Shown here: piece after piece, positions 1,876-46,885 of the stretch
Numbering within the stretch: position 1 is the first letter of the stretch
Layout of the letters: each line of letters opens with the position of its first letter
NCBI GenBank assembly: GCA_964599475.1
Contig: CAZRFU010000014.1
Span: forward strand, 9,121-73,120
Direction of reading: 5' to 3'
Origin: an uncultured Thermoanaerobaculia bacterium
GTDB lineage: Bacteria > Acidobacteriota > Thermoanaerobaculia > Multivoradales > CAZRFU01
DNA length: 64,000 nucleotides
The notes under the pieces: model-generated
Database searches by the model: none
What the model was told of the DNA's origin: nothing
The model's input: only the letters and a program-made list of their open reading frames with translations
Program-made: the position numbers and the translations under genes

Positions 1876-2912
1876 GGACCCGACACTGGCAGTGATGCGG
1901 CGGCCGCCGATCGCTGTCGCCAGCGGTCGATGGCCTCGTTGACGGGACCCTCGAGCGCTGCGGCAATCTGCGCGTGCCCGCGGGAGTTGGGGTGGAGATC
2001 GCCCGGGCTGACTCGCCAGTGGTGGGGTGGCTGGTCGGCAAAGGCGGACGCCAGATCGATGGCCGCACATCCTCGGGCCGTCGCAGCCGTCACCACCTGG
2101 TGCTGGAGGTCTGCGAGCTCGTAGACACCGCTGCGCCACAGACCATCAGCCAGCAGCGGAAGTGCCGCGACCAGCACCTCTGCGCCAACCGCGGTGGCCG
2201 TCGTCCGAATCGAGTCCAACCCGTGCTCCACGGTGGACCACGTTCTTGGATTTCGGTGCAGCGCGCGGTAGTAGTTTCCCCCGCCGTAGGCCTCGCGTTC
2301 CCATCCTGCCCGCGCCCGCAGCAGTGCCCGACCGAGTTTCCAGCCGATCCACCAGCGCTGATGCCGAGCAAAATGGGCGTGCAGCGGCTGGATCGGATCG
2401 ATCTCCGGGTCGTTGGGGTAGTAGGCGACCACCACCATGTCGGGAGACAAGTCGGGCAAACGGGCGCGCGACCAGAGGGCCTGGTCGAGAGTCGAGTACC
2501 CGCCAACCCCTGCGTTCAGGACTTCGACATCGATCCCTTCGATGGCTCGCCGCCGCGCCAAACTTCGTTCGAGCCGGTCGGCAAACAGGTCCCGTGCATT
2601 CTCCACTCCAAACCCGAACGCGACGGAGTCGCCGAGCAGCACCACCCGATAGCGGCTGAGCGCCCGCGGCTTGGGTTCATCGTCGCGCATCCCCAGAGAA
2701 TTCAGCTGGAAGTGGACTCGTCCCTTGGTGCCACGTGCGAGGGGAACGGTCTCGTACGCCAGGCCCGGAATCCGCGATGGACGATGGACCATATTTCGCC
2801 ACGAGCTCGGACGCCCGGCCTCCGGCTCCACATCCGTGACGCGCAGCACTACCTCGGCACTCAAGAGTGCAAAGACGGTCGCGCCACAGGCCAGCAGCAA
2901 TCGAGGCCACAT
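1872..2912 (-). CDS. SGNH/GDSL-family hydrolase with N-terminal signal/anchor (start trimmed from ORF 1872..3467 to Met186)
   Basis: GDSL block I (VVLLGDSVAFGFG), block II/III (NAGVGGYST) and block V (DLHPNSRGH, DxxH). An N-terminal hydrophobic segment MWPRLLLACGATVFALL. The upstream 185 codons of the ORF are Arg/Gly-rich shadow sequence. Confidence 0.75.
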   Translation of the reverse strand: MWPRLLLACGATVFALLSAEVVLRVTDVEPEAGRPSSWRNMVHRPSRIPGLAYETVPLARGTKGRVHFQLNSLGMRDDEPKPRALSRYRVVLLGDSVAFGFGVENARDLFADRLERSLARRRAIEGIDVEVLNAGVGGYSTLDQALWSRARLPDLSPDMVVVAYYPNDPEIDPIQPLHAHFARHQRWWIGWKLGRALLRARAGWEREAYGGGNYYRALHRNPRTWSTVEHGLDSIRTTATAVGAEVLVAALPLLADGLWRSGVYELADLQHQVVTAATARGCAAIDLASAFADQPPHHWRVSPGDLHPNSRGHAQIAAALEGPVNEAIDRWRQRSAAAASLPVSGP

Positions 2913-2963: not shown

Positions 2964-4235
2964 GTGAGCCAACCACAGGGTACCGTCAGTGGAGTCTCTG
3001 CGATCGTGCTCCTGGTCGTGTCCTTGGGGTGTCACGAGGCTCCCGACGAGCCAGCGGGTCCCCGAATCACGGCGCCGTCTGCAACCGCCCGCGCACCGGA
3101 ACGCGACTCGTTGCGCGGCGTGGCCACCCATGCCGCCGCAGACCTCGCCTCGGTGCCATACCTCGACGGCGCTCCCGATCGAGGAGAACGGGTCGGCGCT
3201 CGCATCCTCCGGCCCGAACAGGTTTCCCCCGGAGTCAATCTGTTTTGTTCTCGACAGCGGGGCGCGGCCAGCCTCTTCGCCAACGACGGCACGCAGCTCG
3301 CCAGCTACCGGTTCGAGCTTCGCGGGATCGAGCACTGCGAACTGCGCTCGGACGGGGGGATCGTTGGGTTGGCGTCCGATCGTGCCGTAATTGCGCTCGA
3401 CGCCGGAGGACAAGAGCTGTGGCGCTACCGTGGTGAGGTCCACCATGCCTTCTGGGTCGACGAGCACGATTCGGTCTTCGTGCTCGAGCGCAGGCCGATC
3501 TCACGGCCGACTCTGACGAACAGCTATCGCGTCTACGAAGACCTGGTGGTCGAGCTGGACGAAGGTGGCCACAAGGTCGACGAGGTCTCGCTCCTCGACA
3601 TCTTCGAGCGCTCTTCGTATCGGTTCCTCCTTCCCGGCCGCCTGGAGGCCTCGCCGGAAGCCCGCAGCAGCGGTTCGGAGCCGATCCTCGATCTGCTCCA
3701 CCCGAACCAGATCGAGGTCTTCGACGGTCGCCTTGCCGATCAATGGCCGGATTTCCAGCGTGGCAACTGGCTGGTCGGCTTTCGCAACGTCAATACCATC
3801 GCGGTGGTCGATCCGCGCGACCGGACGATCCGCTGGGTGTGGGGACCCGGCAACCTGACCTATCCTCACCACCCGAGCACCGTGGCCAACGGAAGGATCT
3901 TGGTCTTCGACAACGGCACCACCAGATCGCGTTTGGTCGAGGTCGATCCACGCACCCTGACGATCGGGTGGAGCTACGAACCGGCAGACGACTTCTTCAC
4001 CGCCACGCGGGGAAGTGCAGTACGTCTTGCCAACGGCAACACGCTCATCACCGAGTCGAACCGCGCGCGCGCCCGCGAGGTCACCAGCCAGGGCGACACC
4101 GTGTGGGAATGGCTCAACCCGGCCCGCCTCGAGACCGGGGAGCACGAGACGGTCTGGCGTCTGCTGCGCTATTCCCTGGAAGACCCGAGACTGGCGGCAT
4201 GGCAGGCCAACTCCGGTCGAAGGGGCTCGGGCTGA
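2964..4235 (+). CDS. Arylsulfotransferase (ASST)-family beta-propeller lipoprotein; GTG start inferred
   Basis: C-terminal two-thirds of ORF 1974..4235. Lipoprotein-like leader SGVSAIVLLVVSLGC, ASST-like HHPSTVANGRILVFDNG motifs and a propeller-like repeat pattern. The upstream part of the ORF is low-complexity shadow sequence. Confidence 0.6.
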   Translation: MSQPQGTVSGVSAIVLLVVSLGCHEAPDEPAGPRITAPSATARAPERDSLRGVATHAAADLASVPYLDGAPDRGERVGARILRPEQVSPGVNLFCSRQRGAASLFANDGTQLASYRFELRGIEHCELRSDGGIVGLASDRAVIALDAGGQELWRYRGEVHHAFWVDEHDSVFVLERRPISRPTLTNSYRVYEDLVVELDEGGHKVDEVSLLDIFERSSYRFLLPGRLEASPEARSSGSEPILDLLHPNQIEVFDGRLADQWPDFQRGNWLVGFRNVNTIAVVDPRDRTIRWVWGPGNLTYPHHPSTVANGRILVFDNGTTRSRLVEVDPRTLTIGWSYEPADDFFTATRGSAVRLANGNTLITESNRARAREVTSQGDTVWEWLNPARLETGEHETVWRLLRYSLEDPRLAAWQANSGRRGSG

Positions 4236-5883
4236 GATTGCCGCCAAGCCACAGCAGCTCGACACCTCGGATCGAGGTGTGGCGGAACTCGCGCCATACA
4301 CTCGAATCGATGAGCGCAATCTCCGCCGCCGGGTCGCTCTGGCAGGAGATGCGCAGCTTCGCCTGCGTCGGAGGATCGCTGGCGATATCCACCACCAGCT
4401 GCTGACCTCCGTTCGCGCCGGGTCGCGACTCGGTCGCGGTCACACGACCACCAGCTGCAGCCTCCACGGTTGGCGCCGGGCAGGATTGCGCAGCTCGCAC
4501 TACCACACGGTCGAGGCTGGCCGTGCAGCCAATCCATCGGGCTGCCGATGCATAGCGTGACGAGCAGGGGTCGGTCTTGGGGGCGACGGACCACAGGACC
4601 GTGAGCACCACCACCGCTCCTCCCAGCCACCACCGCGCCGCTCTCCCGGCGCACAACCAGCCCGCCGCGGCGACCGGCAGGGCGAGCACGAAGATGGGCA
4701 GGCCGAGGCGGGCCGAGGCGACGGTCGGCAGGAGCGGCACCAGCAGCGCGGCCCCGAGCACCACGAACGATCCTCGAACGGCTCGGTCGAGGCGGCCGAA
4801 GACGAGGGCTGAGAACGCACCGAGCCACACCGTGATCGCCATCGCGGCACTCCACCACGCCAGAATGACCGCCAAGGACGTTGGCATCGGAGGATACGCC
4901 ACGCGGACCACGTGCCTGACCCCATGACCTGTCGGGGCCAGGACGCGACCGGCGCGCTTTGCAGCGAGGATCAGGCTCGTCGTGGGAGCGCTCGACATGC
5001 GCTCGTACGCCGTGGCGGCTGCGGCACTGTCGAAGGACTCGCCGGTGGCCTCGGCTCGAGCCCTGACCGCGGCCACGAGCTCGCGACGCACGTCGCGGTC
5101 GCGCGAGTCCGGGACCTGCCCCAAGAGCAGGTTGTACCCGCCGGTGGTGCTCAGGGGCACCCAACGGCCTTCCTCGATCCGCAACCAGATGCACCACGGC
5201 GCCAGGACCAAAGCCGCCGTTGCGCCGCCCCACGCTGCCATCGACACGCCCCTGGGACCTCGCAGCAGCAGCAGTGGACCAACCAGCAGCAGCGGCAGCG
5301 CGGCGGCGCGCGTTGCCGCAGCAAGGCCAAGCGCCAGGCCGGCGGCGACAGCGTCGCGCCGCCGCCCTCCACGAGCCGCTACCCACCCGCGATCGAAGGC
5401 CACTACGATCAGGAGCAGGAACACACATTCGGACCAGAAGAGATGGGAAAGGGCCAGCAACTCGAAGGAAGCGAGATGAAAAGCTGCGGCGAGGTGACCG
5501 ACCCGGCGACCCAGCATCCTCCCAGCCCACAGGTACACCATGCCGGTCGTCGCTGCCGCGGCCAACACCGAAACCATACGGCCGCCGACAAGATCCCCGG
5601 TGATCCAGAACGCGAGCCCGAGCAGTGCCGGAAACAGCGGCGGGCGCCTGCCCTCGCCATAGAAGCCGGCAACCTGTTCCCGGCTCGGGAGCGACCCGGC
5701 GATCACCTGCTCCAGGGCATCGCGGGCGGCGAGGCCGGTCGCGACATAGCCGGCCTCGTCGAAGACCGGCCACACGGGCCCCCGTGCGAACATCACGAGG
5801 GCCGCAATCTTCACGGCCAGGGAAATCCCCATCCATCGGACCGCTTCGCGGCGCCGGGGAAGGCTCGCCGGATCAGGCTCCAT
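4114..5883 (-). CDS. GT-C fold membrane glycosyltransferase, ArnT/PMT (GT83/GT39-like) family
   Basis: N-terminal loop FDEAGYVATG (DE motif) followed by RPPLFPALLGLAF (the KPPLxYW-like motif) and more than 10 predicted TM helices. The 3' 120 nt overlap the convergent ASST gene. Confidence 0.75.
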   Translation of the reverse strand: MEPDPASLPRRREAVRWMGISLAVKIAALVMFARGPVWPVFDEAGYVATGLAARDALEQVIAGSLPSREQVAGFYGEGRRPPLFPALLGLAFWITGDLVGGRMVSVLAAAATTGMVYLWAGRMLGRRVGHLAAAFHLASFELLALSHLFWSECVFLLLIVVAFDRGWVAARGGRRRDAVAAGLALGLAAATRAAALPLLLVGPLLLLRGPRGVSMAAWGGATAALVLAPWCIWLRIEEGRWVPLSTTGGYNLLLGQVPDSRDRDVRRELVAAVRARAEATGESFDSAAAATAYERMSSAPTTSLILAAKRAGRVLAPTGHGVRHVVRVAYPPMPTSLAVILAWWSAAMAITVWLGAFSALVFGRLDRAVRGSFVVLGAALLVPLLPTVASARLGLPIFVLALPVAAAGWLCAGRAARWWLGGAVVVLTVLWSVAPKTDPCSSRYASAARWIGCTASLDRVVVRAAQSCPAPTVEAAAGGRVTATESRPGANGGQQLVVDIASDPPTQAKLRISCQSDPAAEIALIDSSVWREFRHTSIRGVELLWLGGNLSPSPFDRSWPAMPPVSGLPGNSAADARPSRAPRSRGGPG

Positions 5884-5974
5884 CGCGGCAGTTTAGTTCC
5901 AAACCCGCTACCGACGGCCGGGCGAAGCGCAGCCGCATCGGGTCCGGCCTTGATACGCTCCCTTCGGAGCCACC

Positions 5975-7312
5975 GTGCAGGACCGCCACGAGCCACTACC
6001 GATCGTCGGGTCCGATCCGGAGCGTCGCTTCGGGCTCGCTCGCGGCGCCGTGAACAATGCGTTTGCCCTGGGGCTGGGGCTCTCCACCAGCCTGGCCACC
6101 CAGATCGTGTTCTCGCGGCTCCTCGGTGCCGACGGCTACGGCCTTTGGACCATTGCCGTCAGCGTGTCGGCGGTGCTGTTGGCCGTCTCGAGTGGCGGAC
6201 TGGAGCTCGGCACGACGCGGGTTGTCGCCGGAGCCCTCGCACGCGGCCGCCACCGCACCGCTCGGCAGCTGTTCTACCAGGCGCGCAGACGTGCCGTCGC
6301 CGCGGGCCTCCTGGTGGCAGCGATCGCTGCCGTGATCCTCCTCGCCGATGTCTCGACGCTCGAGCCGGCACTCGAGGCGACCCTCCTGATCGCCCTGGTG
6401 GCGCTGGTCCTCGATGCGCCGGCAGCCGTCTGCGGCGCATGCATTCGTGCGCTCGGTCGCGTCTTCGAGGGGCGCTTCTACGAGCTGGCGCTGCGCCCTG
6501 CAATGGCTCTCGCAGTCGGGCTCACACTGGCCGCCATCGGCGTCCGGCTCGACGCGCCTCGCGTTCAGCTGGCGTGGACCGTCGCCTCCGCGTTGGTGCT
6601 CGGGTGGCTGATGGTTCGGGCCCGATTGCTCCTCGCAGACATCGTGCGATCGGCTCCGACGCCGCTCGACCAACGCGAGGAGGAACAGAGTTCCGCCACC
6701 CTGGCAGAGGTTGCCGGCCCACTGCGCGCCGTGACGATCCTGAGGATGCTCCTGGCCCACGCCGATGTGCTCGCCGTCGCAATCGCCCTCGGTCCCGTGG
6801 CGACGGCAAGCTACGCAGCGGCGAGGAAACTGGCCAAGTTGGCTGCGTATGGCCAAGTGTTGCTGGCCCCGACACTCGCCCCGAGGCTCGCATCGGATCA
6901 CGCCCAAGCTGGTCCTCCGGGCCTGCGCTCGACGATGCACGCCGCGCGTCGGTTCGCCTGCCTCTGGGGGGCTGGAGCCGTGGTGGTCTTGATCGTCGCA
7001 GGGCCCAATCTGCTCGCGCTCTGGGGACGTTCCTTCCTCGAGGCCTACCCGTCCCTGGTCGTGTTGGCGGTCGGCAACTTCGCCAGCGCCGCTGCCGGCC
7101 CTGCCGGTCTCGCCCTCAACATGGCGGGCCGACCCGGCAGCCACATCCCGTGGTTGGGGATGGCTCTCGCGTTTCAAGTCGGCACTCTCGCCGTGTTGCT
7201 CCCACTCTGGGGCACCCTCGGTGCAGCGATCGCCACCAGTGCCGCCACGATCTGTCTGAAGCTGGCGACGGATCGGCTGGTCCGGCGCCAGATCCTCGCG
7301 CCGCAGACATGA
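5975..7312 (+). CDS. wzx: Polysaccharide/O-antigen flippase, Wzx (MOP superfamily)
   Basis: 445 aa with about 12 TM segments. Gly/Ala-rich helices typical of polysaccharide biosynthesis protein family flippases. Sits in a glycan locus context. Confidence 0.75.
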   Translation: MQDRHEPLPIVGSDPERRFGLARGAVNNAFALGLGLSTSLATQIVFSRLLGADGYGLWTIAVSVSAVLLAVSSGGLELGTTRVVAGALARGRHRTARQLFYQARRRAVAAGLLVAAIAAVILLADVSTLEPALEATLLIALVALVLDAPAAVCGACIRALGRVFEGRFYELALRPAMALAVGLTLAAIGVRLDAPRVQLAWTVASALVLGWLMVRARLLLADIVRSAPTPLDQREEEQSSATLAEVAGPLRAVTILRMLLAHADVLAVAIALGPVATASYAAARKLAKLAAYGQVLLAPTLAPRLASDHAQAGPPGLRSTMHAARRFACLWGAGAVVVLIVAGPNLLALWGRSFLEAYPSLVVLAVGNFASAAAGPAGLALNMAGRPGSHIPWLGMALAFQVGTLAVLLPLWGTLGAAIATSAATICLKLATDRLVRRQILAPQT

Positions 7313-7433
7313 CGGGAGGTCGGGCAGGCCGCCAGCTGAGGTAGCCTTCGCCCATGGCACTGAGCGCCGTCCAGGCGACTCTCGTATCCACCAGGCGCCC
7401 GCGCGCTCGGCGACCCCACCTGGGTCGGCGATC

Positions 7434-8348
7434 ATGAAGGCCGACGGCGTTCCTCGCGTTGCCTACGTGATGGGAGTTGCCCGCAGCGGGTCCACCCTGG
7501 CTGCCAGCTTGCTCGGCAACGCTCCCGGTTGCGCCAACGTGGGTGAGCTGGCACGTCTTGCGCTGGTCTTCGGAGCTCCCGGGGAGCAAGGGCTTTGCGC
7601 CTGCCGTGAGCCGGTTGCCCTGTGCCCATTCTGGCGTGAGGTGGCACACCGCCTGCAGGCCCTCGGGATCGACGTGAGCGATCGCGACGCAGGCCAACGG
7701 CATCGACAGTACGAGCGACTGCGGCGAGTCTGGTCCCCATCGCCGCACGAGGTGGACGAGGACTACCGTCGACGGGAAAGTGCGCTCCTCGCCACCCTGG
7801 CGAATACCTGCGGCGCCGCCACGATCGTCGACTCGTCGAAGGCTCCTGGGCGGGCCGCGACCTTGTCGATGATCTGCGCGACGACTGTTGTCCATCTGCG
7901 GCGTGATCCCCGCGCGGTGGTGTGGTCGTTGCTCGGCGCTCGGAGTCGACGAACTGGGCGCACGAGGGCTGGAATCGGCGCAGTGGTGGTGAGCTCGCTC
8001 GAATGGCTCGTTGCCGAAACATCCTCTCGCCGGGTTGCGCGAACCCTCGGCGACTCGTGCATCGAGGTCCACTACGAAGAGCTGGTGGTGGCACCCGGTC
8101 GGGTGCTGCGACCCGTGTGGGCACGCCTCGAGATCGCCCCTCCACCTTGGGTCGACGATCCCGAGGACCGCGTCGTCGACCCGGGCCACATGGTTGCGGG
8201 CAACCGCTGGCGACTGGGTGGTCCAACACGGGTGTCGGCTCGAGAGCAATGGCGTACCGAGATGCCGACCTGGCAGGTGCGCTTAGTCGGTGCCCTCGCG
8301 CGACTAGCCCGCAACCGTCCTGAGCCGCGGCGAGTACCGTCCCAATGA
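7434..8348 (+). CDS. PAPS-dependent sulfotransferase family protein
   Basis: 5'-PSB P-loop GVARSGSTL near the N-terminus and a 3'-PB-like HLRRDPRAVVWS motif. Cytoplasmic, about 300 aa. Confidence 0.75.
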   Translation: MKADGVPRVAYVMGVARSGSTLAASLLGNAPGCANVGELARLALVFGAPGEQGLCACREPVALCPFWREVAHRLQALGIDVSDRDAGQRHRQYERLRRVWSPSPHEVDEDYRRRESALLATLANTCGAATIVDSSKAPGRAATLSMICATTVVHLRRDPRAVVWSLLGARSRRTGRTRAGIGAVVVSSLEWLVAETSSRRVARTLGDSCIEVHYEELVVAPGRVLRPVWARLEIAPPPWVDDPEDRVVDPGHMVAGNRWRLGGPTRVSAREQWRTEMPTWQVRLVGALARLARNRPEPRRVPSQ

Positions 8349-9478
8349 GGCCCTTTGCCCTCGTCCTTCCCTCCTTGCGCGGAGGCGGCGCCGAGCGCAA
8401 CACGTTGACTCTGGCACGACTCCTCGTCGAAGCCGGTCGTCCGGTCCATCTCGTCGTCGTCGACCCGCGCGGCGAGCTCGCTTCGGTGCTCCCGCCCGGC
8501 GTTCACCTGGTCCCCGTCGTTTCGGTTCCTGCCGCCGCTGACGCCGCGCCGCTCCGCGTGCGTTCAGCGGTTCCCGGCTTGCTTCGGTATCTTCGCGAGA
8601 CCAAGCCAGCGGTGGTCTGGTCGACCTTTGCACACACGCATGTTCTGCTCGTTGCCGCCACCAGGCTTCTCGGCCTCGACTCGCGTGTGGTCTTGCGACT
8701 GGGAACGAGCCTCGAGAAGACCAGTAGCGCACTGATACGCCGGCTCTTGCCCATGGCCCTCGAGCGCGGCCATGTGGTGTTCGCCAACTGCGCCGCCATC
8801 GCCCGAGAAGCCGAGACGGCCACGGGATGGCCGCCCGGAACGGTTCGGGTCGTCCCGAATCTTCTCGACCTCGAAGCACTCGACGCGGCCGCGCTGGCCA
8901 CGCCGGCCCCCAGCGGACTACCTGCCGGAGACGGCCCGCTCGTCGTGTGCGCCGGCAGGCTGGTCGAACAGAAGGACCCCCTGATGGCGTTCGCCGCGTT
9001 CGCTGCGCTCGAACGTGCCGACGTGCGACTGGTCTTTGCAGGCGTCGGTCCACTGCGCGCCGAGCTCGAGCGGATGATCGCCCGCAGCTGGGTGCGCGAC
9101 CGGGTCGCGGTCCTGGGCTTTCGAACCGACCTCCCAGCACTCCTTCGCTCTGCTGTCTGCCTCCTGCTGGCTTCGCGACACGAAGGCCTCGCCAACGTTC
9201 TGCTCGAAGCCTTGGCTCTTGGCTGCACCCCGGTCGTGACCGCCCACTTCGGCGGTTCAGCCGAGCTGCTGGATAGCGGCAGGTACGGGTACATCGCCAA
9301 TCGGCCGACCGCGGACGGGCTCGCCGACGCGCTGGCTCGCGCGCTCGCAGCCCCAATCGAACCGCACCTGCTGCGGGAACGTGCGGTGAAGATGGGTCTT
9401 GCCGAGACCTGGACCCACTATCAGCAGCTGCTGGAGCCCCTTGGGCATCCCGGCGACGAGGACGAACCGGCGTCATGA
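8345..9478 (+). CDS. Glycosyltransferase family 4 (GT-B, group 1)
   Basis: GT4 C-terminal EX7E-type region (VVCAGRLVEQKDP...). Start overlaps the sulfotransferase stop (ATGA). Confidence 0.85.
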   Translation: MRPFALVLPSLRGGGAERNTLTLARLLVEAGRPVHLVVVDPRGELASVLPPGVHLVPVVSVPAAADAAPLRVRSAVPGLLRYLRETKPAVVWSTFAHTHVLLVAATRLLGLDSRVVLRLGTSLEKTSSALIRRLLPMALERGHVVFANCAAIAREAETATGWPPGTVRVVPNLLDLEALDAAALATPAPSGLPAGDGPLVVCAGRLVEQKDPLMAFAAFAALERADVRLVFAGVGPLRAELERMIARSWVRDRVAVLGFRTDLPALLRSAVCLLLASRHEGLANVLLEALALGCTPVVTAHFGGSAELLDSGRYGYIANRPTADGLADALARALAAPIEPHLLRERAVKMGLAETWTHYQQLLEPLGHPGDEDEPAS

Positions 9479-10644
9479 CCACACCGGTTGCGCCAGATGC
9501 TGTCCTCCGGCCACGACTGACGCTGCTCGTGACGGGGCTTGCGCTGGGTGGAGCCGAGCGTTGGTTGGCCTGCCTCGCGATCGAGTTGCAGCGTCGCGGC
9601 TGGAATCCCGATGTTCTGGCACTGTTGCCGGGCGGCCCCTTGGTGGACGAGCTCCGGGCTGCCGGAGTGGCGGTCGCGACTCTCGGTATGGCACGAGGTC
9701 GAGCGAGCGCGCTCGCCTTGGCACGGTATGTCGGCCATCTGCGACGGCGCCGCCCGGCGATCGTCCACTCGACGATGTACCACGCCAATCTCTTGGCCCG
9801 GGTCGGGCGAACCTTTGCGCCCCGACACCTCCTAGTCAACACCATCCAAAACTCGTATGAGGGCGGTCGCGTGCGTGAGCTCGCTCTGCGCGCTACGGAT
9901 CCCCTGGTGGAGCGTGTCGTCCAAGTGAGTCGCGACGGTGCTCGCCGCTACGCCAGCAAGAAGCTGGTTGGGCATTCGAAGCTCCTGGTCCTGCCAAACT
10001 GCGTCGACTGCGAGCGGTTTCGCGCGGATGCCAACAGCCGCGAGGCGGTCCGGCGCGAGGTCGGCGTGGCACAGGGAACCTGTGTGGTGCTGATGGTTGC
10101 CCGATTCGTCGACCAGAAGGACCATGCCACCGTCATTCGGGCTGTGGCCGAGCTCGATCGCGGCGGCGAAGACTTCGAGCTCTGGCTGCTCGGTGCCGGG
10201 CCCCTGCGGTCGAGTGTCGAAGCTGCCGTTGCGGCGCACGGTCTCGAGCGCAGGGTTCGATTTCTCGGCGAGCGCGCAGATGTCGAGCGGATCTATTGCG
10301 GTGCGGACATTCTGACTCTGGCATCGCACTGGGAAGGCCTTCCGTTGTGCGTGCTCGAGGGTGGCGCCACCGGCCTCCCTCTCGTCGCCGCAGCGGTCCC
10401 AGGGTCCGACGAGTGGTTTGGTGGTGCAGCCGCGCCCGGCTGTTTTCTTTTCCCGCCCGGCGACGCCGAGGCCTTGTCTCGCTCGTTGGCGCGCTTGATG
10501 GGCAACCGTGCCTTGCGCGAGCAGGCAGGCCACAGTCTGCGTCACCTGGTGCTCGAACACCGCAGCCACCTCAGCGCCGCATCGAGCTGGGAGGACCTCT
10601 ATCGCCAGCTGCTTTCCCCACCGGCCCAAGGAGAGCGGAGGTGA
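9475..10644 (+). CDS. Glycosyltransferase family 4
   Basis: LVTGLALGGAERW N-terminus, MVARFVDQKDH and a C-terminal glycosyl-transferase group 1 signature. ATGA overlap with the upstream GT4. Confidence 0.85.
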   Translation: MTTPVAPDAVLRPRLTLLVTGLALGGAERWLACLAIELQRRGWNPDVLALLPGGPLVDELRAAGVAVATLGMARGRASALALARYVGHLRRRRPAIVHSTMYHANLLARVGRTFAPRHLLVNTIQNSYEGGRVRELALRATDPLVERVVQVSRDGARRYASKKLVGHSKLLVLPNCVDCERFRADANSREAVRREVGVAQGTCVVLMVARFVDQKDHATVIRAVAELDRGGEDFELWLLGAGPLRSSVEAAVAAHGLERRVRFLGERADVERIYCGADILTLASHWEGLPLCVLEGGATGLPLVAAAVPGSDEWFGGAAAPGCFLFPPGDAEALSRSLARLMGNRALREQAGHSLRHLVLEHRSHLSAASSWEDLYRQLLSPPAQGERR

Positions 10645-11681
10645 GCGACCACGCAAGCGACGTCACCACGACTCGCGCCTCCCTGCGGTCACGCGGGCCA
10701 TGGGGGAGCTTTCTGGTGCTCGGAGCGAGCTCCCACGCCGACGCGGCGCGACGCCCGGAGGGCGCACGTCATGCGCGAGCGATCGTGGGGCTCGTCGACG
10801 CGGATCGTGGCACCTACCAAGAGCTCTTTGCCTACGAGTCGCCTTCATCGATTCGGCCGCCAGGCGGCGCGATGCGTTTCGGCGCTGGGTGTCTCGAAGG
10901 GAGCCTGCTCTGGACCTGCACGCCGACCGAGGTCGTTGCCTTCGAGCTGCCCAGCTTCCGGAAGACCTGCAGCATCAGTCTGCCGTGGTTCAACGACCTG
11001 CATCACGTGGTGCGTTACCACGACGGCCTGCTGGTGGTGGCCACCGGGGTCGATCGCGTCATCCACTGCGACCTCCAAGGCCGAATCCTTCGAGTTTGGC
11101 ACGTCCTCGATGGGGAGGTATCCCCCGAGCTCCTTCCCGAGCAGGATTACCGCATGCTGGGCTCGACCAAACCACACCGGGCGCACCCCAACTACGCCTT
11201 CGTGGCCAACGACGCGATCTGGGCCACGCGCTTCGAGCAGCGCGACGCGGCCTGCCTGACCGAGCCGGGCCGTGTACTGACGCTGGGCGGCGAGCGACCC
11301 CACGATGGTCGGGTCGGTGGGGACGAGGTCACTTTCACCACCGTCGATGGTCACATCGTGGTTGTCCACCTGAGCTCTCTCGAGGTCCGCCGGTTCGACC
11401 TGCAGGCGATGAGCGGCGAAACGGCAAGCCTCGGCTGGTGTCGGGGTCTGAGCGTACCGGCCGCAGGGGCGACGGTGGTGGGCTTCTCCCGCCTGCGACC
11501 CACCCGGCTGCGAGAGAACCTCCGCTGGCTCAAGCATCGGGCTGGACTGCGTCGCAGCCCTGGGAACCTGCCATCGAGGGTCGTCGGTTTCGACCTCGAA
11601 GCCCGCGCGATGGCCTTCGCGGTGGAGGTCGAACGCCACGGGCTCAACGTGATCTTCGACATCCTGCCATGGTCCGGCTAG
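10641..11681 (+). CDS. Hypothetical protein, possible ASST-like beta-propeller (GTG start overlapping upstream stop, GTGA)
   Basis: Only the C-terminal 347 codons of ORF 10296..11681 look protein-like. It has His-rich motifs (NDLHHVVRYHDG, KPHRAHPNYAFVANDAIW) loosely reminiscent of arylsulfotransferase-family propellers. The upstream part is shadow sequence. Confidence 0.45.
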   Translation: MSDHASDVTTTRASLRSRGPWGSFLVLGASSHADAARRPEGARHARAIVGLVDADRGTYQELFAYESPSSIRPPGGAMRFGAGCLEGSLLWTCTPTEVVAFELPSFRKTCSISLPWFNDLHHVVRYHDGLLVVATGVDRVIHCDLQGRILRVWHVLDGEVSPELLPEQDYRMLGSTKPHRAHPNYAFVANDAIWATRFEQRDAACLTEPGRVLTLGGERPHDGRVGGDEVTFTTVDGHIVVVHLSSLEVRRFDLQAMSGETASLGWCRGLSVPAAGATVVGFSRLRPTRLRENLRWLKHRAGLRRSPGNLPSRVVGFDLEARAMAFAVEVERHGLNVIFDILPWSG

Positions 11682-11866
11682 CCGACTCGTACACTGCCCA
11701 CGCGCCACATGCGCGGTCGTGCTGAGGTGGCTCTCTCGGTCGCCGGTCGCTGGAGCTTCGGGCTAGACTTTCGCCATGCCCCCAAGCCCGAGCCTCGCAC
11801 CGCGCTCTGGACGCGGCCCGACGAACCGCATGGACGGCTCTACCACCGAGCGTCGGGGCCGTTAGC

Positions 11867-13210
11867 GTGGCACCAGGGTCAGCCGGGGACGTGCTTCGCC
11901 ACATCGGCGGCGGATCTTTCGCCGGCGACCGTGACTCCCCGCCGGCCGGCCGGTCGAAGGCCTGGGGCGACTGCCCTCGAGTCGCCCACGTCACGACCAT
12001 CGACCGGTCGTTGCGATACCTTCTGCTCGACCAGCTGATCTACCTCGAGCGAGCAGGGTTCGATGTCTGTGGCGTGTCGAGCTCCGGTGGCGACGTTGGT
12101 AGCCTGGTCGCGGCGGGTATACCGCACCATGCCGTGCGGCTGACACGCCGCATGACTCCGTGGTCCGACCTGCTGGCCTACGCGCAGTTGCGACGGACCT
12201 TTTCCCGGTTGCGGCCGGCAGTCGTCCACACCCATACTCCCAAGGCGGGCCTGCTGGGCCAACTTGCGGCCCGCCACGCCCGCGTACCGTGCATCGTGAA
12301 CACGGTCCATGGGTTCCTGTTCTCCGATCGAACCCCGGTCCCGGCCCGGGCGGCGTGGACCCTGGTCGAGCGCGTGGCAGGACGCTGCAGCGATGCGATC
12401 CTCTTCCAGAATTCGGAAGACCTTACAGCAGCGGCGGCGGCAGGCATTGGCCCACGGGCACGCCGACTGTTGCTCGGCAATGGCATCGACCTCGCGCGTT
12501 TCGATCCCGCGCGTCTCGAGCCCCAACGCCAAGCGGCCCTGGCCGACAGCCTCGGCCTCGCTGCGGCGGGTGCCCCCGATGGAGCACCGGTTGTGGGCTT
12601 CGTCGGCCGACTGACTGCTGAGAAGGGCTTGGTCGAGCTGTGCGCCGCGTTTGCACGAGTCTGGCACCGGCGGCGAGATGCGCGCCTGCTCCTCGTCGGC
12701 GCGTCCGGGAGTGAGGAACGGGCCGGCGTGGTCCCCCAACAGCTCCTCGCAGCGCACGAGGTGCCGCCCTCTGTCCTGGTCGAGACAGGTCAACGCGAAG
12801 ACGTCCCGGAGCTGCTCGGTCTGATGCAGGTCTTGGCCCTGCCGTCTCATCGCGAGGGTTTCCCGCGGGCTGCGATGGAAGCTGCGGCCATGGGACTGCC
12901 GGTCGTCGCGAGCCGGGAACGTGGGTGTCGCCACGCCGTCGCCGACGGCGATACGGGCATCCTCGTCGAGATCGGCGATGTCGGCGGCCTGGTCTCCGCG
13001 ATCGACTCACTGCTGGCGGACCCCAACCTTCGGGCCCGAATGGGGAGAGCCGGGCGAGCGCTGGCGCTCCGTTCGTTTGACCAGAACGACGTCTTTCGGC
13101 GAGTCGAGGCGACGTACCGAAGCCTCTTGGCGGAACACGCACACCACCGCTCCGGCTCCGCTTCGAGCCAACCCCCGACCCTCCCGTCGCTCTCGAGGCA
13201 GGTACGATGA
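11867..13210 (+). CDS. Glycosyltransferase family 4 (WbuB/PimA-like); start uncertain
   Basis: VAHVTTIDRSL N-terminal GT4 motif about 35 codons into the ORF, and a C-terminal group 1 GT domain. No canonical start lies closer to the conserved N-terminus. Confidence 0.8.
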   Translation: MAPGSAGDVLRHIGGGSFAGDRDSPPAGRSKAWGDCPRVAHVTTIDRSLRYLLLDQLIYLERAGFDVCGVSSSGGDVGSLVAAGIPHHAVRLTRRMTPWSDLLAYAQLRRTFSRLRPAVVHTHTPKAGLLGQLAARHARVPCIVNTVHGFLFSDRTPVPARAAWTLVERVAGRCSDAILFQNSEDLTAAAAAGIGPRARRLLLGNGIDLARFDPARLEPQRQAALADSLGLAAAGAPDGAPVVGFVGRLTAEKGLVELCAAFARVWHRRRDARLLLVGASGSEERAGVVPQQLLAAHEVPPSVLVETGQREDVPELLGLMQVLALPSHREGFPRAAMEAAAMGLPVVASRERGCRHAVADGDTGILVEIGDVGGLVSAIDSLLADPNLRARMGRAGRALALRSFDQNDVFRRVEATYRSLLAEHAHHRSGSASSQPPTLPSLSRQVR

Positions 13211-13827
13211 CCAGACCGATCGTCGTGCTCGGCGCCGGCGGTCATGCGCACGTGGTGGTAGCACTCCTGCGCAGCTGCGGGAGGACGGTGGCCGCGATGT
13301 ACGACGACGACGCCTCGACGTGGGGCAGCGACATCGACGGGGCTCCGATCGTGGGTCCGATCGAGGCGGCGACCGAATGCCCTTTCCCCGCGATCATCGC
13401 GGTAGGCAACAACAAGGCTCGACAACGACTCGCGGCCTGGGACCTCGACTGGGACGTCCTCATCCATCCATCAGCGGTCGTCGAGCGCACCGCGGTGCTC
13501 GGCCCGGGTTCGGTGGTGTGCGCTGGGGCCGTGGTGCAAGTCGAGGCGAACATTGGTCGTCACGTGATCGTCAACACGGCCGCCACGGTCGATCACCACT
13601 GCACCATCGGTAGCTTCGCCCATCTTGCCCCCGGCTGCCACCTGGCCGGTCGGGTCACCGTCGGAGAGGGGGCTCTGATCGGCATCGGTGCCTGCGCGAT
13701 TCCCGGCCGAACCATCGGACCGTGGTCGACGGTCGGAGCCGGAGCAGCCGTCACCGCCAACGTTGCGCCACACACGACCGTTGGTGGCGTGCCGGCCCGC
13801 CGGCTGGTCCGCAGGGTCGCACCATGA
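13207..13827 (+). CDS. Sugar N/O-acetyltransferase, NeuD/PglD hexapeptide-repeat family
   Basis: N-terminal Rossmann-like VVLGAGGHA and a C-terminal left-handed beta-helix with hexapeptide repeats. ATGA overlap with the upstream GT4. Confidence 0.85.
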   Translation: MTRPIVVLGAGGHAHVVVALLRSCGRTVAAMYDDDASTWGSDIDGAPIVGPIEAATECPFPAIIAVGNNKARQRLAAWDLDWDVLIHPSAVVERTAVLGPGSVVCAGAVVQVEANIGRHVIVNTAATVDHHCTIGSFAHLAPGCHLAGRVTVGEGALIGIGACAIPGRTIGPWSTVGAGAAVTANVAPHTTVGGVPARRLVRRVAP

Positions 13828-14954
13828 GTCGGATCTACCTTTCAGCGCCCCATCTTGCCGGCGACGAGCTCGACTTGGTCCGGGATGCCCTCGAGAGCTG
13901 TTGGGTGGCTCCCGTTGGACCTCACGTCGACGCCTTCGAGCACGAGGTCGCGGAAACGGTTGGTGTTGGCTTCGCAGCTGCGGTATCGAGCGGCACCGCT
14001 GCGATCCACCTGGCGCTGCGCCTGCTTGGGGTCGGTCCCGGCGACGAGGTTGTCGTTCCGACCTTGACCTTCTGCGCATCTGCCAACCCGGTTCGCTACC
14101 TCGGCGCTACGCCAGTCTTTCTCGATGTCGACGCTACGAGCTATACCCTCGATCCCGAGCTGCTGGAGTCTGAGCTTCGGCAGCGCTCTGTGGCCGGTCG
14201 ACTACCGCGGGCGGTGATCACCGTGGATCTCTATGGTCAGAGCGCCGACCACGCGGCGATCCTGGGCGTGTGCGGCCGCCATGGGGTGCCGGTGGTCGAG
14301 GACGCTGCCGAAGCGCTTGGCGCGACCTACCATGGTCGCAGCGTCGGAGGATTCGGCCGGTTCGGTGTGATCTCGTTCAATGGCAACAAGATCATTTCGA
14401 GCTCGGGCGGTGGCATGTTGCTCAGCGATGACCCTGCGGCAATCGAGCAGGCCCGCTTCCTGGCCTCGCAGGCGCGAGATCCAGCGCCGCACTACGAACA
14501 CTCGACGCTCGGGTACAACTACGGGCTTTCCAACGTGTGCGCCGCAATCGGCCGCGCCCAGCTGCGGCAACTCGCCATGCGCGTGACCGCCCGCCGCGCC
14601 GTCTTCGCGCGCTATCGAGACGGCCTCGGCGACCTCCCGGGCGTTTCCTTCATGCCCGAGGCCGGCTGGGGTGTCGCCACCCGCTGGTTGTCGGTGATCC
14701 ACATCGATCGCGCAGCATTCGGCGTCGATCGAAACGGCGTCCTGCAAGCTCTCGAGCGCGCCGACATCGAAGCTCGACCGGTCTGGAAGCCCCTCCATTT
14801 GCAGCCGCTCTTCGCCGACTGTCCGCGTCGGGGAGGGGCTGTCGCCGAGAATCTCTTCGCCACCGGACTGTGTCTGCCCTCCGGCTCCGGCATGTCCGCC
14901 AGCGCGCAGAGTAGGGTGGTGGATGTGATTCGGGGCCTCGCCGAGCGCGTATGA
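13824..14954 (+). CDS. DegT/DnrJ/EryC1/StrS-family sugar aminotransferase (PglE-like); start trimmed to Met35 of the ORF
   Basis: MSRIYLSAPHLAGDEL start and SFNGNKIISSSGGG (PLP-lysine region). ATGA overlap with the upstream acetyltransferase stop. Confidence 0.9.
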   Translation: MSRIYLSAPHLAGDELDLVRDALESCWVAPVGPHVDAFEHEVAETVGVGFAAAVSSGTAAIHLALRLLGVGPGDEVVVPTLTFCASANPVRYLGATPVFLDVDATSYTLDPELLESELRQRSVAGRLPRAVITVDLYGQSADHAAILGVCGRHGVPVVEDAAEALGATYHGRSVGGFGRFGVISFNGNKIISSSGGGMLLSDDPAAIEQARFLASQARDPAPHYEHSTLGYNYGLSNVCAAIGRAQLRQLAMRVTARRAVFARYRDGLGDLPGVSFMPEAGWGVATRWLSVIHIDRAAFGVDRNGVLQALERADIEARPVWKPLHLQPLFADCPRRGGAVAENLFATGLCLPSGSGMSASAQSRVVDVIRGLAERV

Positions 14955-15580
14955 CGGACAACTCCAGGGTCCGCAGCGGCGCCACGACGAGCTTTGCCAA
15001 ACGTCTCGTCGACGTCGTCGGAGCTCTGAGCTTGCTCATCCTGACTGCCCCCGTGGTGGGGATTCTCGCGGTGATCGGGCGGCTCCACTTCGGTGCCCCG
15101 GTGGTGTTCCGGCAGGTTCGTACGGGTCTGGGTGGTCGAGACTTCACCCTTCTGAAGCTTCGCAGCATGCACGAGCTGCAGGACGCCAGCGGTATCCCGG
15201 CACCCGACGCCGTGCGGCTCGACACCTACGGACGGTGGTTGCGTGCCACCAGCGCCGACGAGCTGCCGAGCCTGTGGAATGTCCTGCGTGGCGACATGAG
15301 CCTGGTCGGCCCGCGGCCGCTGCTGCCGGCCTACCTTCCCCGATACTCCCCGGAACAGGCACGGCGTCACGCGGTTCGTCCCGGCATCACCGGCTGGGCT
15401 CAGATTCATGGCCGCAACGCTGTGGACTGGCCGATCCGGCTGGCGCTCGACGTGTGGTACGTCGATCACTGGTCGCTCGGGCTCGATCTGCGAATCCTGG
15501 TGCGGACCGTGGGCGTGGTCGTTTTGCGTCGAGGAATCAGCCGCGAAGGGCATGCGACCATGCCGGAGCTCGAGGGCTAG
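14951..15580 (+). CDS. Undecaprenyl-phosphate sugar phosphotransferase (small PglC/WbaP-C-terminal-type initiating transferase)
   Basis: Bacterial sugar transferase motifs RPLLPAYLPRYSPEQ...RPGITGWAQIHGRN, a single N-terminal TM helix, about 209 aa. ATGA overlap with the upstream gene. Confidence 0.85.
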   Translation: MTDNSRVRSGATTSFAKRLVDVVGALSLLILTAPVVGILAVIGRLHFGAPVVFRQVRTGLGGRDFTLLKLRSMHELQDASGIPAPDAVRLDTYGRWLRATSADELPSLWNVLRGDMSLVGPRPLLPAYLPRYSPEQARRHAVRPGITGWAQIHGRNAVDWPIRLALDVWYVDHWSLGLDLRILVRTVGVVVLRRGISREGHATMPELEG

Positions 15581-40656: not shown

Positions 40657-43197
<2,541 letters not shown>

Positions 43198-43199
43198 GG

Positions 43200-45701
<2,502 letters not shown>

Positions 45702-45801
45702 TCACGAGCTGGAATGGAGGTCGCGGCAGGACGCCACAACCTTTCGATCATACCATTCGCCGACCCTTGCGTGTGGGCTCAAGGGTCACGAGATGCGTCG
45801 T

Positions 45802-46875: not shown

Positions 46876-46885
46876 GCCTCGGGGG

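Follow-up and report, generated by a model that had tools for sequence, protein, structure and literature searches.

The sulfated polysaccharide synechan of Synechocystis sp. PCC 6803 is made by a Wzx/Wzy cluster (xss) that carries sulfotransferases (PMC8205485), and the combination of PAPS genes and sulfotransferases within a glycan cluster has been proposed as a hallmark of sulfated polysaccharide synthesis (PMC11641403). A different scheme is the two-step sulfation of caprazamycin, which, as described in PMC4257720 (citing Tang et al. 2013) and PMC13426309, involves the type III polyketide synthase (PKS) Cpz6, the PAPS-dependent sulfotransferase Cpz8 and the ASST-type sulfotransferase Cpz4, the last of which preferentially sulfates sugar hydroxyls (PMC13426309). 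Here we analyze a 64-kb stretch of DNA (the window) from an uncultured Thermoanaerobaculia bacterium, where the original prediction placed a lipid-linked glycan assembly locus with a PAPS-type sulfotransferase inside its operon, a description that domain searches and motifs bear out.

The locus resembles xss in that sulfotransferase and glycosyltransferase genes are found together in what appears to be a Wzx-dependent heteropolysaccharide cluster, and in both cases the sulfate is presumed to be added to the lipid-linked repeat unit in the cytoplasm. However, xss has Wzy and PCP and, as described, neither a propeller partner nor a GT-C or ASST-like gene, whereas the window encodes neither Wzy nor PCP, and a PglC/DegT/PglD module would make the start of its chain. 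Like the caprazamycin system, the locus combines a PAPS-type sulfotransferase with a Cpz4 homologue (E=4e-14), and the window also holds an operon for a type III PKS; but the caprazamycin system is a cytoplasmic secondary-metabolite pathway of actinomycetes. In the present case the ASST-like protein seems to be exported, the PKS lies outside the locus, and a surface glycan would be the target. Finally, the diNAcBac module of the Campylobacter/Neisseria pgl systems (PglC, PglE, PglD, PglF) also contains a small monotopic phosphoglycosyltransferase (PGT), a DegT aminotransferase and a PglD-family acetyltransferase, which in the window are encoded by consecutive genes with overlapping junctions. 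Unlike pgl, the window lacks PglF, PglK and an oligosaccharyltransferase (PglB or PglL), the flippase is of the Wzx type, and the aminotransferase scores best against LegC/PseC models, below their cut-offs.

Gene content and layout of the locus

The gene content first described for positions 2964-15580 is real as judged by Pfam, NCBIfam or homology, the domain searches matching the ASST, PMT_2, Sulfotransfer_3, GT4 (three genes), PglD/NeuD, DegT and small PGT families. The features, including two genes to the left, are:

1..1875, minus strand: M905, orphan 905-aa membrane protein, first 625 codons in the window (the gene continues past the left window end)
1872..2912, minus strand: SGNH/GDSL hydrolase with N-terminal membrane anchor (PF13472, 1.1e-15)
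2964..4235, plus strand: ASST-family (PAPS-independent arylsulfate sulfotransferase family) six-bladed propeller (PF14269, 8.5e-16; PF05935, 1.7e-9)
4114..5883, minus strand: GT-C fold membrane glycosyltransferase, PMT_2 type, with C-terminal soluble domain (PF13231, 33.1 bits; cut-off 26.1)
5975..7312, plus strand: Wzx-type MOP flippase, opening the plus-strand operon (homology, about 12 TM segments)
7434..8348, plus strand: cytoplasmic PAPS-dependent sulfotransferase (Sulfotransfer_3, TPST-like; PF13469, 1.8e-11)
8345..9478, plus strand: GT4 glycosyltransferase a, overlapping the end of the sulfotransferase gene by ATGA (PF00534, 5.8e-26; PF13439, 4.3e-16)
9475..10644, plus strand: GT4 glycosyltransferase b, ATGA overlap (PF00534, 1.6e-25; PF13439, 3.5e-13)
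10641..11681, plus strand: hyp346, cytoplasmic beta-propeller with six blades, from a large and uncharacterised family, GTGA overlap with GT4b (confident structure model)
11867..13210, plus strand: GT4 glycosyltransferase c, 186-nt gap after hyp346; start at 11867 or 11891 (PF00534, 1.4e-32; PF13579, 1.1e-15)
13207..13827, plus strand: PglD/NeuD/VioB-family sugar N-acetyltransferase (TIGR03570, 3.1e-59, 200 bits, cut-off 160.8; PglD_N and Hexapep)
13824..14954, plus strand: DegT/PglE/LegC-type sugar 4-aminotransferase (PF01041, 2.1e-97)
14951..15580, plus strand: small monotopic PglC-type PGT (initiating enzyme), last operon gene (PF02397, 5.1e-57)

The five consecutive ATGA/GTGA overlaps originally counted are actually six, arranged as two runs of three. 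Read at the junctions, the first run comprises ATGA at 8345 and 9475 and GTGA at 10641, the second ATGA at 13207, 13824 and 14951, with the 186-nt gap between them; translational coupling thus connects sulfotransferase-GT4a-GT4b-hyp346 on one side and GT4c-PglD-DegT-PGT on the other. The flippase assignment does not come from Pfam, where the match to PF01943 reaches only E=0.037, but from homology to the Pfam-verified Polysacc_synt flippase of the syntenic locus L007 (BLASTP, 30% identity over 372 residues, E=3e-30).

The left boundary of the locus does not lie at 2964, to the left of which we find a divergent minus-strand unit consisting of the SGNH/GDSL hydrolase, M905 and an alkaline-phosphatase-superfamily lipoprotein. 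The hydrolase gene, the first of this unit and diverging from the ASST-like gene, encodes 346 aa as called in L001 and has a hydrophobic N-terminus MWPRLLLACGATVFALLSAEVVL. M905, at full length L001:1528-4245(-), has approximately 9-12 N-terminal TM helices in a TM scan followed by a long helical C-terminal part that is possibly TPR-like. It matches nothing in Pfam or NCBIfam, has no relative but itself among 5.8 billion proteins, and its single-sequence AF2 model (pLDDT 43) is unusable; it is a possible, not a certain, member of the glycan locus.

Proposed chain assembly and first sugar

The region is a genuine gene cluster for the lipid-carried assembly of a sulfated sugar chain, and sulfation of the glycan is well supported. 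In its full form, including the role of hyp346 and the periplasmic steps, our reading is of a Wzx-dependent locus whose product is a short sulfated heteroglycan assembled on undecaprenyl phosphate, and we give this a probability of roughly 60%. In the substrate order that we infer from sequence, the DegT aminotransferase and the PglD-type acetyltransferase would produce an N-acetylated 4-amino-6-deoxyhexose with the help of a dehydratase encoded elsewhere, the small PglC-type transferase would place this sugar first in the chain, and the three GT4 enzymes would lengthen the chain to approximately a tetrasaccharide. The cytoplasmic Sulfotransfer_3 enzyme, together with hyp346, would sulfate the lipid-linked intermediate from PAPS, Wzx would flip the sulfated product, and in the periplasm the conserved pair of PMT_2-type GT-C and ASST-family protein would decorate it further or hand it on to a putative final acceptor. 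Because PAPS synthase, CysQ, Wzy_C, ligase, PCP/OPX and PglF are all absent from the 64-kb window, the pathway is incomplete as seen.

The proposed bacillosamine-like first sugar is plausible but unproven. The PGT/DegT/PglD trio fits it, and the PGT (209 aa) has the single N-terminal hydrophobic segment and the SADELP and VGPRP motifs; the identity of the sugar does not follow, since the aminotransferase scores best with LegC (TIGR04181, 355 bits, below the 420 cut-off; PseC, 246 bits), the acetyltransferase family includes VioB-type enzymes, and the window holds no PglF-type dehydratase, as had been noticed originally. The label "pgl-like", taken as a protein glycosylation system, is not supported because PglB/STT3, PglL/Wzy_C and PglK are all missing.

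The sulfotransferase and its partner hyp346

On alignment the sulfotransferase has an intact 5'-PSB motif (R17-S18-G19-S20-T21) and 3'-PB motif (R157...S165), both conserved in its family and aligning, together with a GE motif, to the tyrosylprotein sulfotransferases TPST1/2; G19, S20, T21, E38, D133, S135 and R157 are invariant in the family. At 32-35% identity (E=1e-30 to 1e-37), it is the counterpart of the enzyme encoded directly downstream of a hyp346-type propeller in at least 12 other loci.

For hyp346 itself no match was found at E<=1 in Pfam or NCBIfam, while relatives are present in at least 584 reference genomes. It is confidently modelled as a six-bladed beta-propeller with 35 invariant positions rich in His and Arg, and the family is enzyme-like, uncharacterised and a conserved partner of the sulfotransferase. 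The likewise uncharacterised propeller family DUF4915 (PF16261)/TIGR03032, on which the literature searched contains no paper under either name, gives weak matches in 22 of 52 hyp346-family members (best 2.6e-7), but none at E<=1 with the window protein.

The neighbourhood was surveyed in 80 hyp346 loci from reference genomes, 46 of them with the full flank of 10 kb on either side. Sulfation genes (sulfotransferase, PAPS synthase or CysQ) occur in 54 of the 80, and within 10 kb in 38 of the 46 fully flanked loci, the other eight having none by the profiles used; Wzx, GT4, Wzy or PGT genes accompany 43 of the 46. In 45 of the 80, a sulfotransferase, CysQ, PAPS synthase or Wzx gene is directly adjacent to hyp346 on the same strand. 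Among control loci with relatives of the GT-C but no hyp346, a small set (n=24) of on average shorter loci, sulfation genes were present in 0 of 24 compared to 38 of 46 (Fisher p=5e-10). The homologue lies between two sulfotransferases in L007 and L008, together with PAPS synthase, CysQ, Wzx, Wzy_C and GT4, an arrangement that recurs in L115 with a small PGT, DegT and PglF added. Sulfation as the function of the locus is strengthened by the conservation elsewhere of the hyp346-sulfotransferase pair beside a fused ATP-sulfurylase/APS-kinase, CysQ, Wzx, Wzy_C and GT4 genes. Such sulfation was originally called rare in bacteria, which is true of characterised systems, but the survey suggests that the cassettes occur commonly among uncultured Acidobacteriota and in several further phyla.

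We infer that hyp346 is an enzyme of the sulfation step, its link to sulfur chemistry being through gene neighbourhood alone. It is possible, with a lower probability, that it acts outside sulfation chemistry, as a scaffold or as a sugar-modifying enzyme (epimerase, lyase, hydrolase or cyclase on a sulfated or acidic unit) travelling with acidic-glycan loci: lactonases, PAL lyase and strictosidine synthase are among the six-bladed propellers that have central His/Asp/Arg clusters, and hyp346 adjoins Wzx as often as sulfation genes (25 versus 24 of 80). Profile comparison with the ASST family gave no significant link, and hyp346, a propeller by fold, was rejected as an ASST member by sequence.

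RaxST sulfates tyrosine in a secreted peptide or protein, and the nearest solved relatives of the window enzyme are the protein-tyrosine sulfotransferases TPST1/2, at the weak level of E=0.03-0.6. Taken with the lack of PAPS-synthesis genes in the window, this could mean an ordinary unsulfated O-antigen or EPS unit cluster with the sulfotransferase as a passenger acting on a tyrosine of a secreted peptide or protein, or on a small molecule. We consider this unlikely: the gene sits between Wzx and the glycosyltransferases and has an ATGA overlap with the GT4 gene that follows, in at least 12 other loci its counterparts belong to glycan clusters with dedicated PAPS synthase and CysQ, and the operon contains no candidate peptide substrate gene.

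The GT-C and ASST-like pair

The GT-C gene and the ASST-like gene are convergent, their 3' ends overlapping by 122 nt, and on the other side a 91-nt spacer separates the GT-C gene from the divergent Wzx gene. The convergent ASST/GT-C pair also adjoins sulfation cassettes in two other loci (L017 and L090). Both motifs first noted, DE and PP(L), are present, D42 E43 and P81 P82 being invariant among the syntenic relatives, six of which (32-35% identity) also share WP.(F/W)DEAGY, YG.G..PP, HL.WSE, GYNL.LGQ and H..RH. Periplasmic GT-Cs of the ArnT/PMT/GtrC type likewise have many TM helices, a PMT_2 domain and, in their first periplasmic loop, an Asp-Glu motif, but the window protein differs from them in its distinctive conserved C-terminal soluble domain, in its conserved pairing with the ASST-like gene, and in having no ArnC/GtrB-type GT2 or GtrA flippase nearby; no GT2 polyprenyl-phosphate sugar synthase was found for it. 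A canonical ArnT was rejected because no NCBIfam model, ArnT or other, matched at E<=1.

The GT-C had been proposed as the final transferase, attaching the sulfated oligosaccharide after flipping to protein or to lipid A in a system for protein O-glycosylation or for modifying lipid A, which our data neither support nor exclude and which we judge quite improbable. In its favour, the window has Wzx yet no Wzy, WaaL or PglL, the GT-C divergently adjoins the Wzx operon and is kept beside such cassettes, and its soluble C-terminal domain is of the periplasm type. However, there is no positive evidence for transfer en bloc, enzymes of the PMT_2/ArnT/PMT class take single sugars from polyprenyl-monophosphate donors and not Und-PP-oligosaccharides, no ArnT model matches, and no acceptor protein is evident. 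Related Thermoanaerobaculia loci carry both this GT-C and a Wzy_C-family gene, and therefore it does not replace Wzy_C there. In the preferred reading the GT-C would add a single sugar and the ASST-like protein would transfer or re-position sulfate.

The ASST-like protein exceeds the gathering score of both PF14269 and PF05935 and belongs to a large family (5,498 cluster representatives); H161, H246, N248 and H302 are invariant. Compared by family profile, it matches Cpz4 (9kf6) at E=4e-14, the HD, D..H.N and QH(H/D) motifs aligning, and residues 434-501 of E. coli ASST at E=0.006; the three His motifs of Cpz4 and EcASST are kept. While the family stands, the lipoprotein assignment is only probable (non-canonical VSLGC box, no charge in the n-region, start at 2964 or 3006), and the protein is probably exported or a lipoprotein. 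The plural "arylsulfotransferase-family propellers" does not hold, as only one ORF in the window matches any ASST profile.

A caprazamycin-like relay is very doubtful. In it the sulfotransferase would sulfate a phenolic carrier, for which the type III PKS/methyltransferase/acyl-AMP ligase/MMPL operon at 26.4-33.1 kb is a possible source; the aryl sulfate would reach the periplasm, where PAPS is unavailable, and there the ASST-like protein would pass the sulfate to the flipped glycan. In favour of it are the presence of all three Cpz6/Cpz8/Cpz4 enzyme types within one 33-kb stretch, the MMPL exporter ending the PKS operon, the preference of Cpz4 for sugar hydroxyls (PMC13426309) and the two-step scheme documented in PMC4257720 (citing Tang et al. 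2013). Against it, the PKS operon is 11 kb from the locus end with housekeeping genes between, a type III PKS occurs within 10 kb on either side (the range of the test) in 0 of 105 related loci, and the sulfotransferase is operonic with glycosyltransferases, not the PKS, and has hyp346, not the ASST-like protein, as its conserved partner.

Gene content and extent of the glycan locus

Because the window has a G+C content of 68%, raw ORF lists were noisy, and third-position GC gave poor separation of the genes inside the glycan locus. The gene map of the original prediction was therefore tested directly, and its families were confirmed with Pfam and NCBIfam models, or in the case of Wzx by homology.

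Genes of the glycan locus (window coordinates, strand where assigned, and assignment)
2964-4235 (+), ASST-family protein (ASST-like; PF14269, 8.5e-16; PF05935, 1.7e-9)
4114-5883 (-), PMT_2 membrane glycosyltransferase (GT-C; PF13231, 33.1 bits against a cut-off of 26.1), convergent with the ASST gene
5975-7312, Wzx flippase (homology to the flippase of a syntenic locus; Pfam below threshold)
7434-8348 (+), Sulfotransfer_3 enzyme (ST; 1.8e-11)
8345-9478, GT4 enzyme, first of three (Pfam/NCBIfam)
9475-10644, GT4 enzyme, second of three (Pfam/NCBIfam)
10641-11681 (+), hyp346, 346 aa, the modelled propeller (frame from the GTGA overlap)
11867-13210, GT4 enzyme, third of three (Pfam/NCBIfam)
13207-13827, NeuD/PglB/VioB-family acetyltransferase (TIGR03570, 200 bits against a cut-off of 160.8)
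13824-14954, DegT aminotransferase (2e-97)
14951-15580, Bac_transf phosphoglycosyltransferase (PGT), 209 aa (5e-57)

The Wzx candidate failed the Pfam thresholds (E=0.037); the call was secured through a Pfam-verified Polysacc_synt flippase from a syntenic locus, with which it has 30% of 372 aligned residues in common (E=3e-30). For the DegT aminotransferase, the LegC family was the top NCBIfam model with 355 bits, under the cut-off of 420. ATGA overlaps are found at 8345, 9475, 13207, 13824 and 14951 and a GTGA overlap at 10641; instead of the five consecutive overlaps first described, the junctions form two runs of three, with a 186-nt gap after hyp346 between them.

The same locus, 99.8% identical, is present in several Logan metagenome assemblies, one of which reaches 2.4 kb further left than the window. 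This extension (contig L001) revealed a divergent minus-strand unit to the left of 2964, where the locus had been thought to start.

Genes of the left flank
1872-2912 (-), membrane-anchored SGNH/GDSL hydrolase
L001:1528-4245, equal to window <1-1875 (-), polytopic membrane protein of 905 aa (M905)
L001:65-1483, left of the window (-), PF00884 ‘Sulfatase’ lipoprotein (Pfam Sulfatase/Phosphodiest, 9e-41)

The ‘Sulfatase’ lipoprotein was rejected as a true sulfatase. In place of the C/S-x-P-x-R formylglycine motif it reads W-T-K-P-S-L, which makes a Thr-nucleophile enzyme of the alkaline-phosphatase superfamily, acting as a phospho-transferase or hydrolase, the more probable assignment. M905, which lies between the SGNH hydrolase and this lipoprotein and beside the glycan locus, has a long helical C-terminal part. 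It gave no relative among 5.8 billion proteins, no family match and no similarity to GT-C, Wzy or Wzx profiles, and its single-sequence AF2 model was unusable (pLDDT 43). M905 could be a polymerase, a ligase, another glycan-handling protein or an over-called ORF.

A search of the 64-kb window found no PAPS synthase (PAPSS), CysQ, CysDN, PCP/OPX, GT2 or PglF-type dehydratase, the last in agreement with the original prediction, and no Wzy_C-type gene with an HMM built from syntenic loci. Among the scanned ORFs, none matched STT3 or Wzy_C and no Wzz, Wzc or Wza was found; of the components of a Wzx/Wzy pathway, Wzx was identified by homology. The locus has PglC-, PglE- and PglD-like genes in common with Campylobacter pgl, but its flippase is of the Wzx type. 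Because no OTase (PglB [STT3] or PglL), PglF or PglK was found in the window, the locus is not a pgl system, and the pgl-like protein glycosylation that had been suggested for it is not supported. Nor is it an Arn system.

The sulfotransferase and its propeller partner

ST matched PF13469 with 45.2 bits (cut-off 27) over profile positions 3-212 of 216. Its GVARSGSTL segment aligns to GMPRSGTTL of TPST, the 5'-PSB motif (xRSG(S/T)T), and RRDPRAVVWS aligns to IRDGRAVVHS, the 3'-PB motif (R-D-x-R...S). Among 27 family members, residues R17, S18, G19, S20, T21, E38, R157 and S165 show no or almost no variation. By profile and motifs ST is classed as a PAPS-dependent Sulfotransfer_3/TPST-like P-loop enzyme; the absence of the two PAPS motifs had been named in advance as what would overturn this assignment, and both are present, conserved and aligned to TPST. 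The invariant G37-E38 pair aligns to the CGE motif of TPST, which is suggestive of a catalytic-base site. Outside the standard PAPS motifs, residues 55-64 of the ST subfamily hold three nearly invariant cysteines (C55, C57 and C64; consensus CGCGxPFxxCxFW) that may bind a metal or be linked in a disulfide.

Since ST has neither a signal peptide nor a TM segment and its gene overlaps the next GT4 gene, we infer a cytoplasmic enzyme that works as part of the assembly operon. A word-indexed search returned 27 matches and made ST look like a near-orphan, with uninformative contexts for the weak matches, but this was a prefilter artefact. In at least 12 loci the propeller gene is directly followed by a Sulfotransfer_3 gene to whose product ST aligns along its entire length with 32-35% identity (E=1e-30 to 1e-37), and therefore ST and the propeller constitute a conserved pair. 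In the window the two are separated by two GT4 genes alone, within one overlapping operon.

The propeller hyp346 is a soluble protein of 346 aa, modelled as a six-bladed beta-propeller, with zero Pfam or NCBIfam matches. Its family gave 623 matches at 40-50% identity in the protein collection and occurs in at least 584 species-representative genomes, mostly of Acidobacteriota (Thermoanaerobaculia and Terriglobia), and also of Gemmatimonadota, Krumholzibacteriota, Planctomycetota, Chloroflexota and further phyla; no homologue was found on annotated plasmids, cyanobacterial megaplasmids included. For hyp346, GT-C and the ASST-like protein alike, the nearest relatives come from Thermoanaerobaculia (Acidobacteriota) MAGs, with identities of only 35-50%. 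Across 52 diverse members 35 positions are invariant, including the motifs ND-HH, DYR, T-KPH--HPN, R--Q, HDG, W-RG and R-R. Foldseek matched generic propellers only, and a profile search of the PDB was empty. When the hyp346 profile was compared with a 54-sequence profile of the genuine ASST-like family of the window, only single-blade similarity in several competing registers was obtained, with no significant in-register similarity that would make hyp346 a member of the ASST family. Weak matches to DUF4915 occurred in 22 of the 52 members, and neither DUF4915 nor TIGR03032 was mentioned in the literature searched.

The genomic neighbourhood of the propeller family is rich in sulfation genes. 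In the related loci L007 and L008 the hyp346 homologue has a sulfotransferase on either side, and both loci also encode a fused ATP-sulfurylase/APS-kinase, a CysQ-type phosphatase, Wzx, Wzy_C and GT4; locus L115 has the same type of cassette plus a small PGT, DegT and PglF. Profiles built from such cassette genes were scanned over 80 reference-genome loci. A sulfotransferase, PAPS synthase or CysQ was found within the fetched flanks of 54 of the 80 loci, and in 38 of the 46 that had a full flank of +-10 kb; Wzx, GT4, Wzy or PGT was found in 43 of these 46. The direct same-strand neighbour of the propeller was a sulfotransferase, CysQ or PAPSS in 24/80 loci and Wzx in 25/80, and one or the other group adjoined it in 45/80. 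Among 24 metagenome loci with a GT-C relative and no propeller, a rough control set that is small and whose loci are on average shorter, none had a sulfotransferase, PAPSS or CysQ (Fisher p=5e-10). Two of the Terriglobia loci (L053 and L056) carry two or three tandem hyp346-family genes downstream of PAPSS-CysQ.

For the propeller alone there is an alternative role: it is possible, if doubtful, that it modifies sugars in a way that does not involve sulfur. We consider it still less likely, though worth stating, that the family is a previously unrecognised and widespread catalytic component of bacterial glycan sulfation. In that case hyp346 could carry sulfuryl groups in a second or a PAPS-independent step, through a histidine intermediate and in tandem with the adjacent ST, and it could resemble ASST/Cpz4 in logic while being cytoplasmic.

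The convergent GT-C and ASST-like genes

Besides its PF13231 match, GT-C has multiple TM segments and an acidic motif, WPVFDEAGY, right after TM1 in which D42-E43 is invariant. Profile, topology and motif place it in the PMT_2 class (GT39/GT83-like). GT-C shares this motif, further invariant motifs and a distinctive C-terminal soluble domain with five syntenic Thermoanaerobaculia proteins that are 32-35% identical to it. As to the possibility of a canonical ArnT, no ArnT or other NCBIfam model matched at E<=1, and no ArnC-, ArnA- or ArnB-type genes were found among the GT-C neighbours.

The ASST-like protein scored 58.6 bits against PF14269 (cut-off 27) and 37.6 against PF05935 (cut-off 24.2), and its family comprises 5,498 representative clusters. 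Cpz4 was matched by the family profile (E=4e-14) in an alignment that brings the HD, D..H.N and QH(H/D) motifs into register, and H161, H246 and H302 of the window protein are invariant. By these profiles and histidines it is assigned as a genuine member of the ASST family. The profile also aligns to residues 434-501 of E. coli ASST, a range that includes the catalytic His436, and from these alignments we infer an equivalent of this residue in the window protein.

In the genomes of these syntenic GT-C proteins the sulfation cassette lies next to GT-C and is divergent from it, in the order 364-aa unknown, PAPSS, CysQ, UGDH, Wzx, ST, propeller, ST, Wzy_C and GT4. More distant GT-C relatives are without such neighbours. 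In L017 and L090 the 3' ends of GT-C and of a convergent ASST-like gene overlap, the same arrangement as in the window. The overlap thus recurs in three independent loci (window 4114-4235, 122 nt; L017:1059-1183, 125 nt; L090:11739-11812, 74 nt). The protein tails within it are poorly conserved, and the overlap may be incidental in high-GC DNA even though the arrangement recurs. The conserved gene of about 364 aa has no Pfam match and always lies between GT-C and PAPSS in Thermoanaerobaculia-type cassettes (L007:1701-2795; L008:2726-3823; homologues in L009, L011-L013, L015, L017 and L090); the window has no copy of it. The part that ASSTs play in physiology has been called poorly understood, and Cpz4 shows a preference for sulfating sugar hydroxyls (PMC13426309). 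The conserved ASST-family/GT-C pairing offers a concrete physiological context for these enzymes.

Proposed pathway, its alternatives and the rest of the window

The analysis established the enzyme families, the PAPS-binding motifs, the coupling of the operon genes, the modelled propeller fold and the conserved neighbourhoods; the pathway itself is a proposal. Our main reading, to which we assign a probability of about 0.6, is that the locus makes a Wzx-dependent glycan that is sulfated by ST; each of the individual steps that follow is less certain than this. The PglC-type PGT would initiate on Und-P with an N-acetylated 4-amino-6-deoxyhexose, and the three GT4 enzymes would lengthen the chain. 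ST, together with its partner propeller, would sulfate the cytoplasmic lipid-linked intermediate with PAPS made elsewhere, after which Wzx would flip the product. Enzymes of the ArnT/PMT class transfer sugars from polyprenyl-phosphate donors, and because of this established behaviour GT-C may add a sugar from such a donor. Finally, the ASST-like protein may transfer sulfate in the periplasm, a compartment that lacks PAPS.

An unsulfated cluster in which the sulfotransferase is a passenger seems improbable. About as improbable is the original idea that GT-C is the final transferase and moves the glycan en bloc; it is the addition of a single sugar that corresponds to the known behaviour of the class.

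Sulfated-glycan clusters as such are already known. In recent papers sulfated polysaccharides among bacteria are still described as essentially confined to cyanobacteria (PMC8205485, PMC13390465). Closest to the window locus among the characterised systems is the synechan xss cluster, with Wzx/Wzy plus two sulfotransferases (PMC8205485), and clusters with PAPS genes have been reported for sulfated capsules in Vibrio (PMC11641403) and for a predicted sulfated capsule in Actinoplanes (PMC13390465). The descriptions of these three clusters mention no GT-C, no ASST-like gene and no partner of the propeller type. What is new is the architecture, its spread in uncultured phyla, and a highly conserved enzyme-like family tied to sulfation genes. 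The locus and its relatives suggest that cassettes dedicated to glycan sulfation, with PAPS synthase, CysQ, sulfotransferases and Wzx, are frequent among abundant phyla of soil and sediment that are uncultured, and that they carry a conserved, uncharacterised enzyme-like propeller. If the propeller family is indeed a catalytic component of glycan sulfation, surface glycans sulfated by this cassette would be widespread in Acidobacteriota, Gemmatimonadota, Krumholzibacteriota, Planctomycetota and further phyla of soils and sediments, and the periplasmic ASST/GT-C pair of the window lineage would add a sulfation or decoration step beyond the reach of PAPS. If the propeller acts in sulfation, it would be a new enzyme for making sulfated glycans, with relevance for biotechnology (heparin-like and carrageenan-like materials) and for how biofilm matrices in soil, the binding of metals and the cycling of sulfur are understood.

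Elsewhere in the window, a four-gene operon occupies 26385-33072 (-):

31855-33072 (-), type III polyketide synthase
31337-31861 (-), ICMT/PEMT-family methyltransferase
29473-31104 (-), AMP-binding acyl ligase
26385-29579 (-), MMPL/RND exporter

It looks like a unit for synthesis and export of phenolic lipids (alkylresorcinol/alkylpyrone), and it deserves attention since type III PKS products reportedly serve as the sulfate carriers of the Cpz4-type ASST pathway. A Cpz-like aryl-sulfate relay through this operon is nevertheless very improbable, as no type III PKS was present within +-10 kb of 105 related loci and a conserved linkage was accordingly rejected. An MMPL/sterol-sensing-domain transporter (L007:17051-19231, minus strand) lies about 6 kb from the sulfation cassette of an unrelated Acidobacteriota MAG, which may be a coincidence.

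The chromosomal origin region was located at 40657-49662 (-) and about 48-50 kb, with dnaA (48220-49662, minus strand) and dnaN, recF, gyrB and gyrA on the minus strand, then mutY, and with yidC-jag-rsmG-parA-parB-bactofilin further right. The GC skew changes sign near 48 kb, which puts the glycan locus at a distance of about 33 kb from oriC. Genes for a small SRP RNA of the bacterial type and for two tRNAs were found at 55824-55922 (-), 56508-56597 (+) and 56645-56731 (+). The longest dnaX ORF (54159-56537) overlaps these RNA genes, and the true dnaX start must therefore be further downstream.
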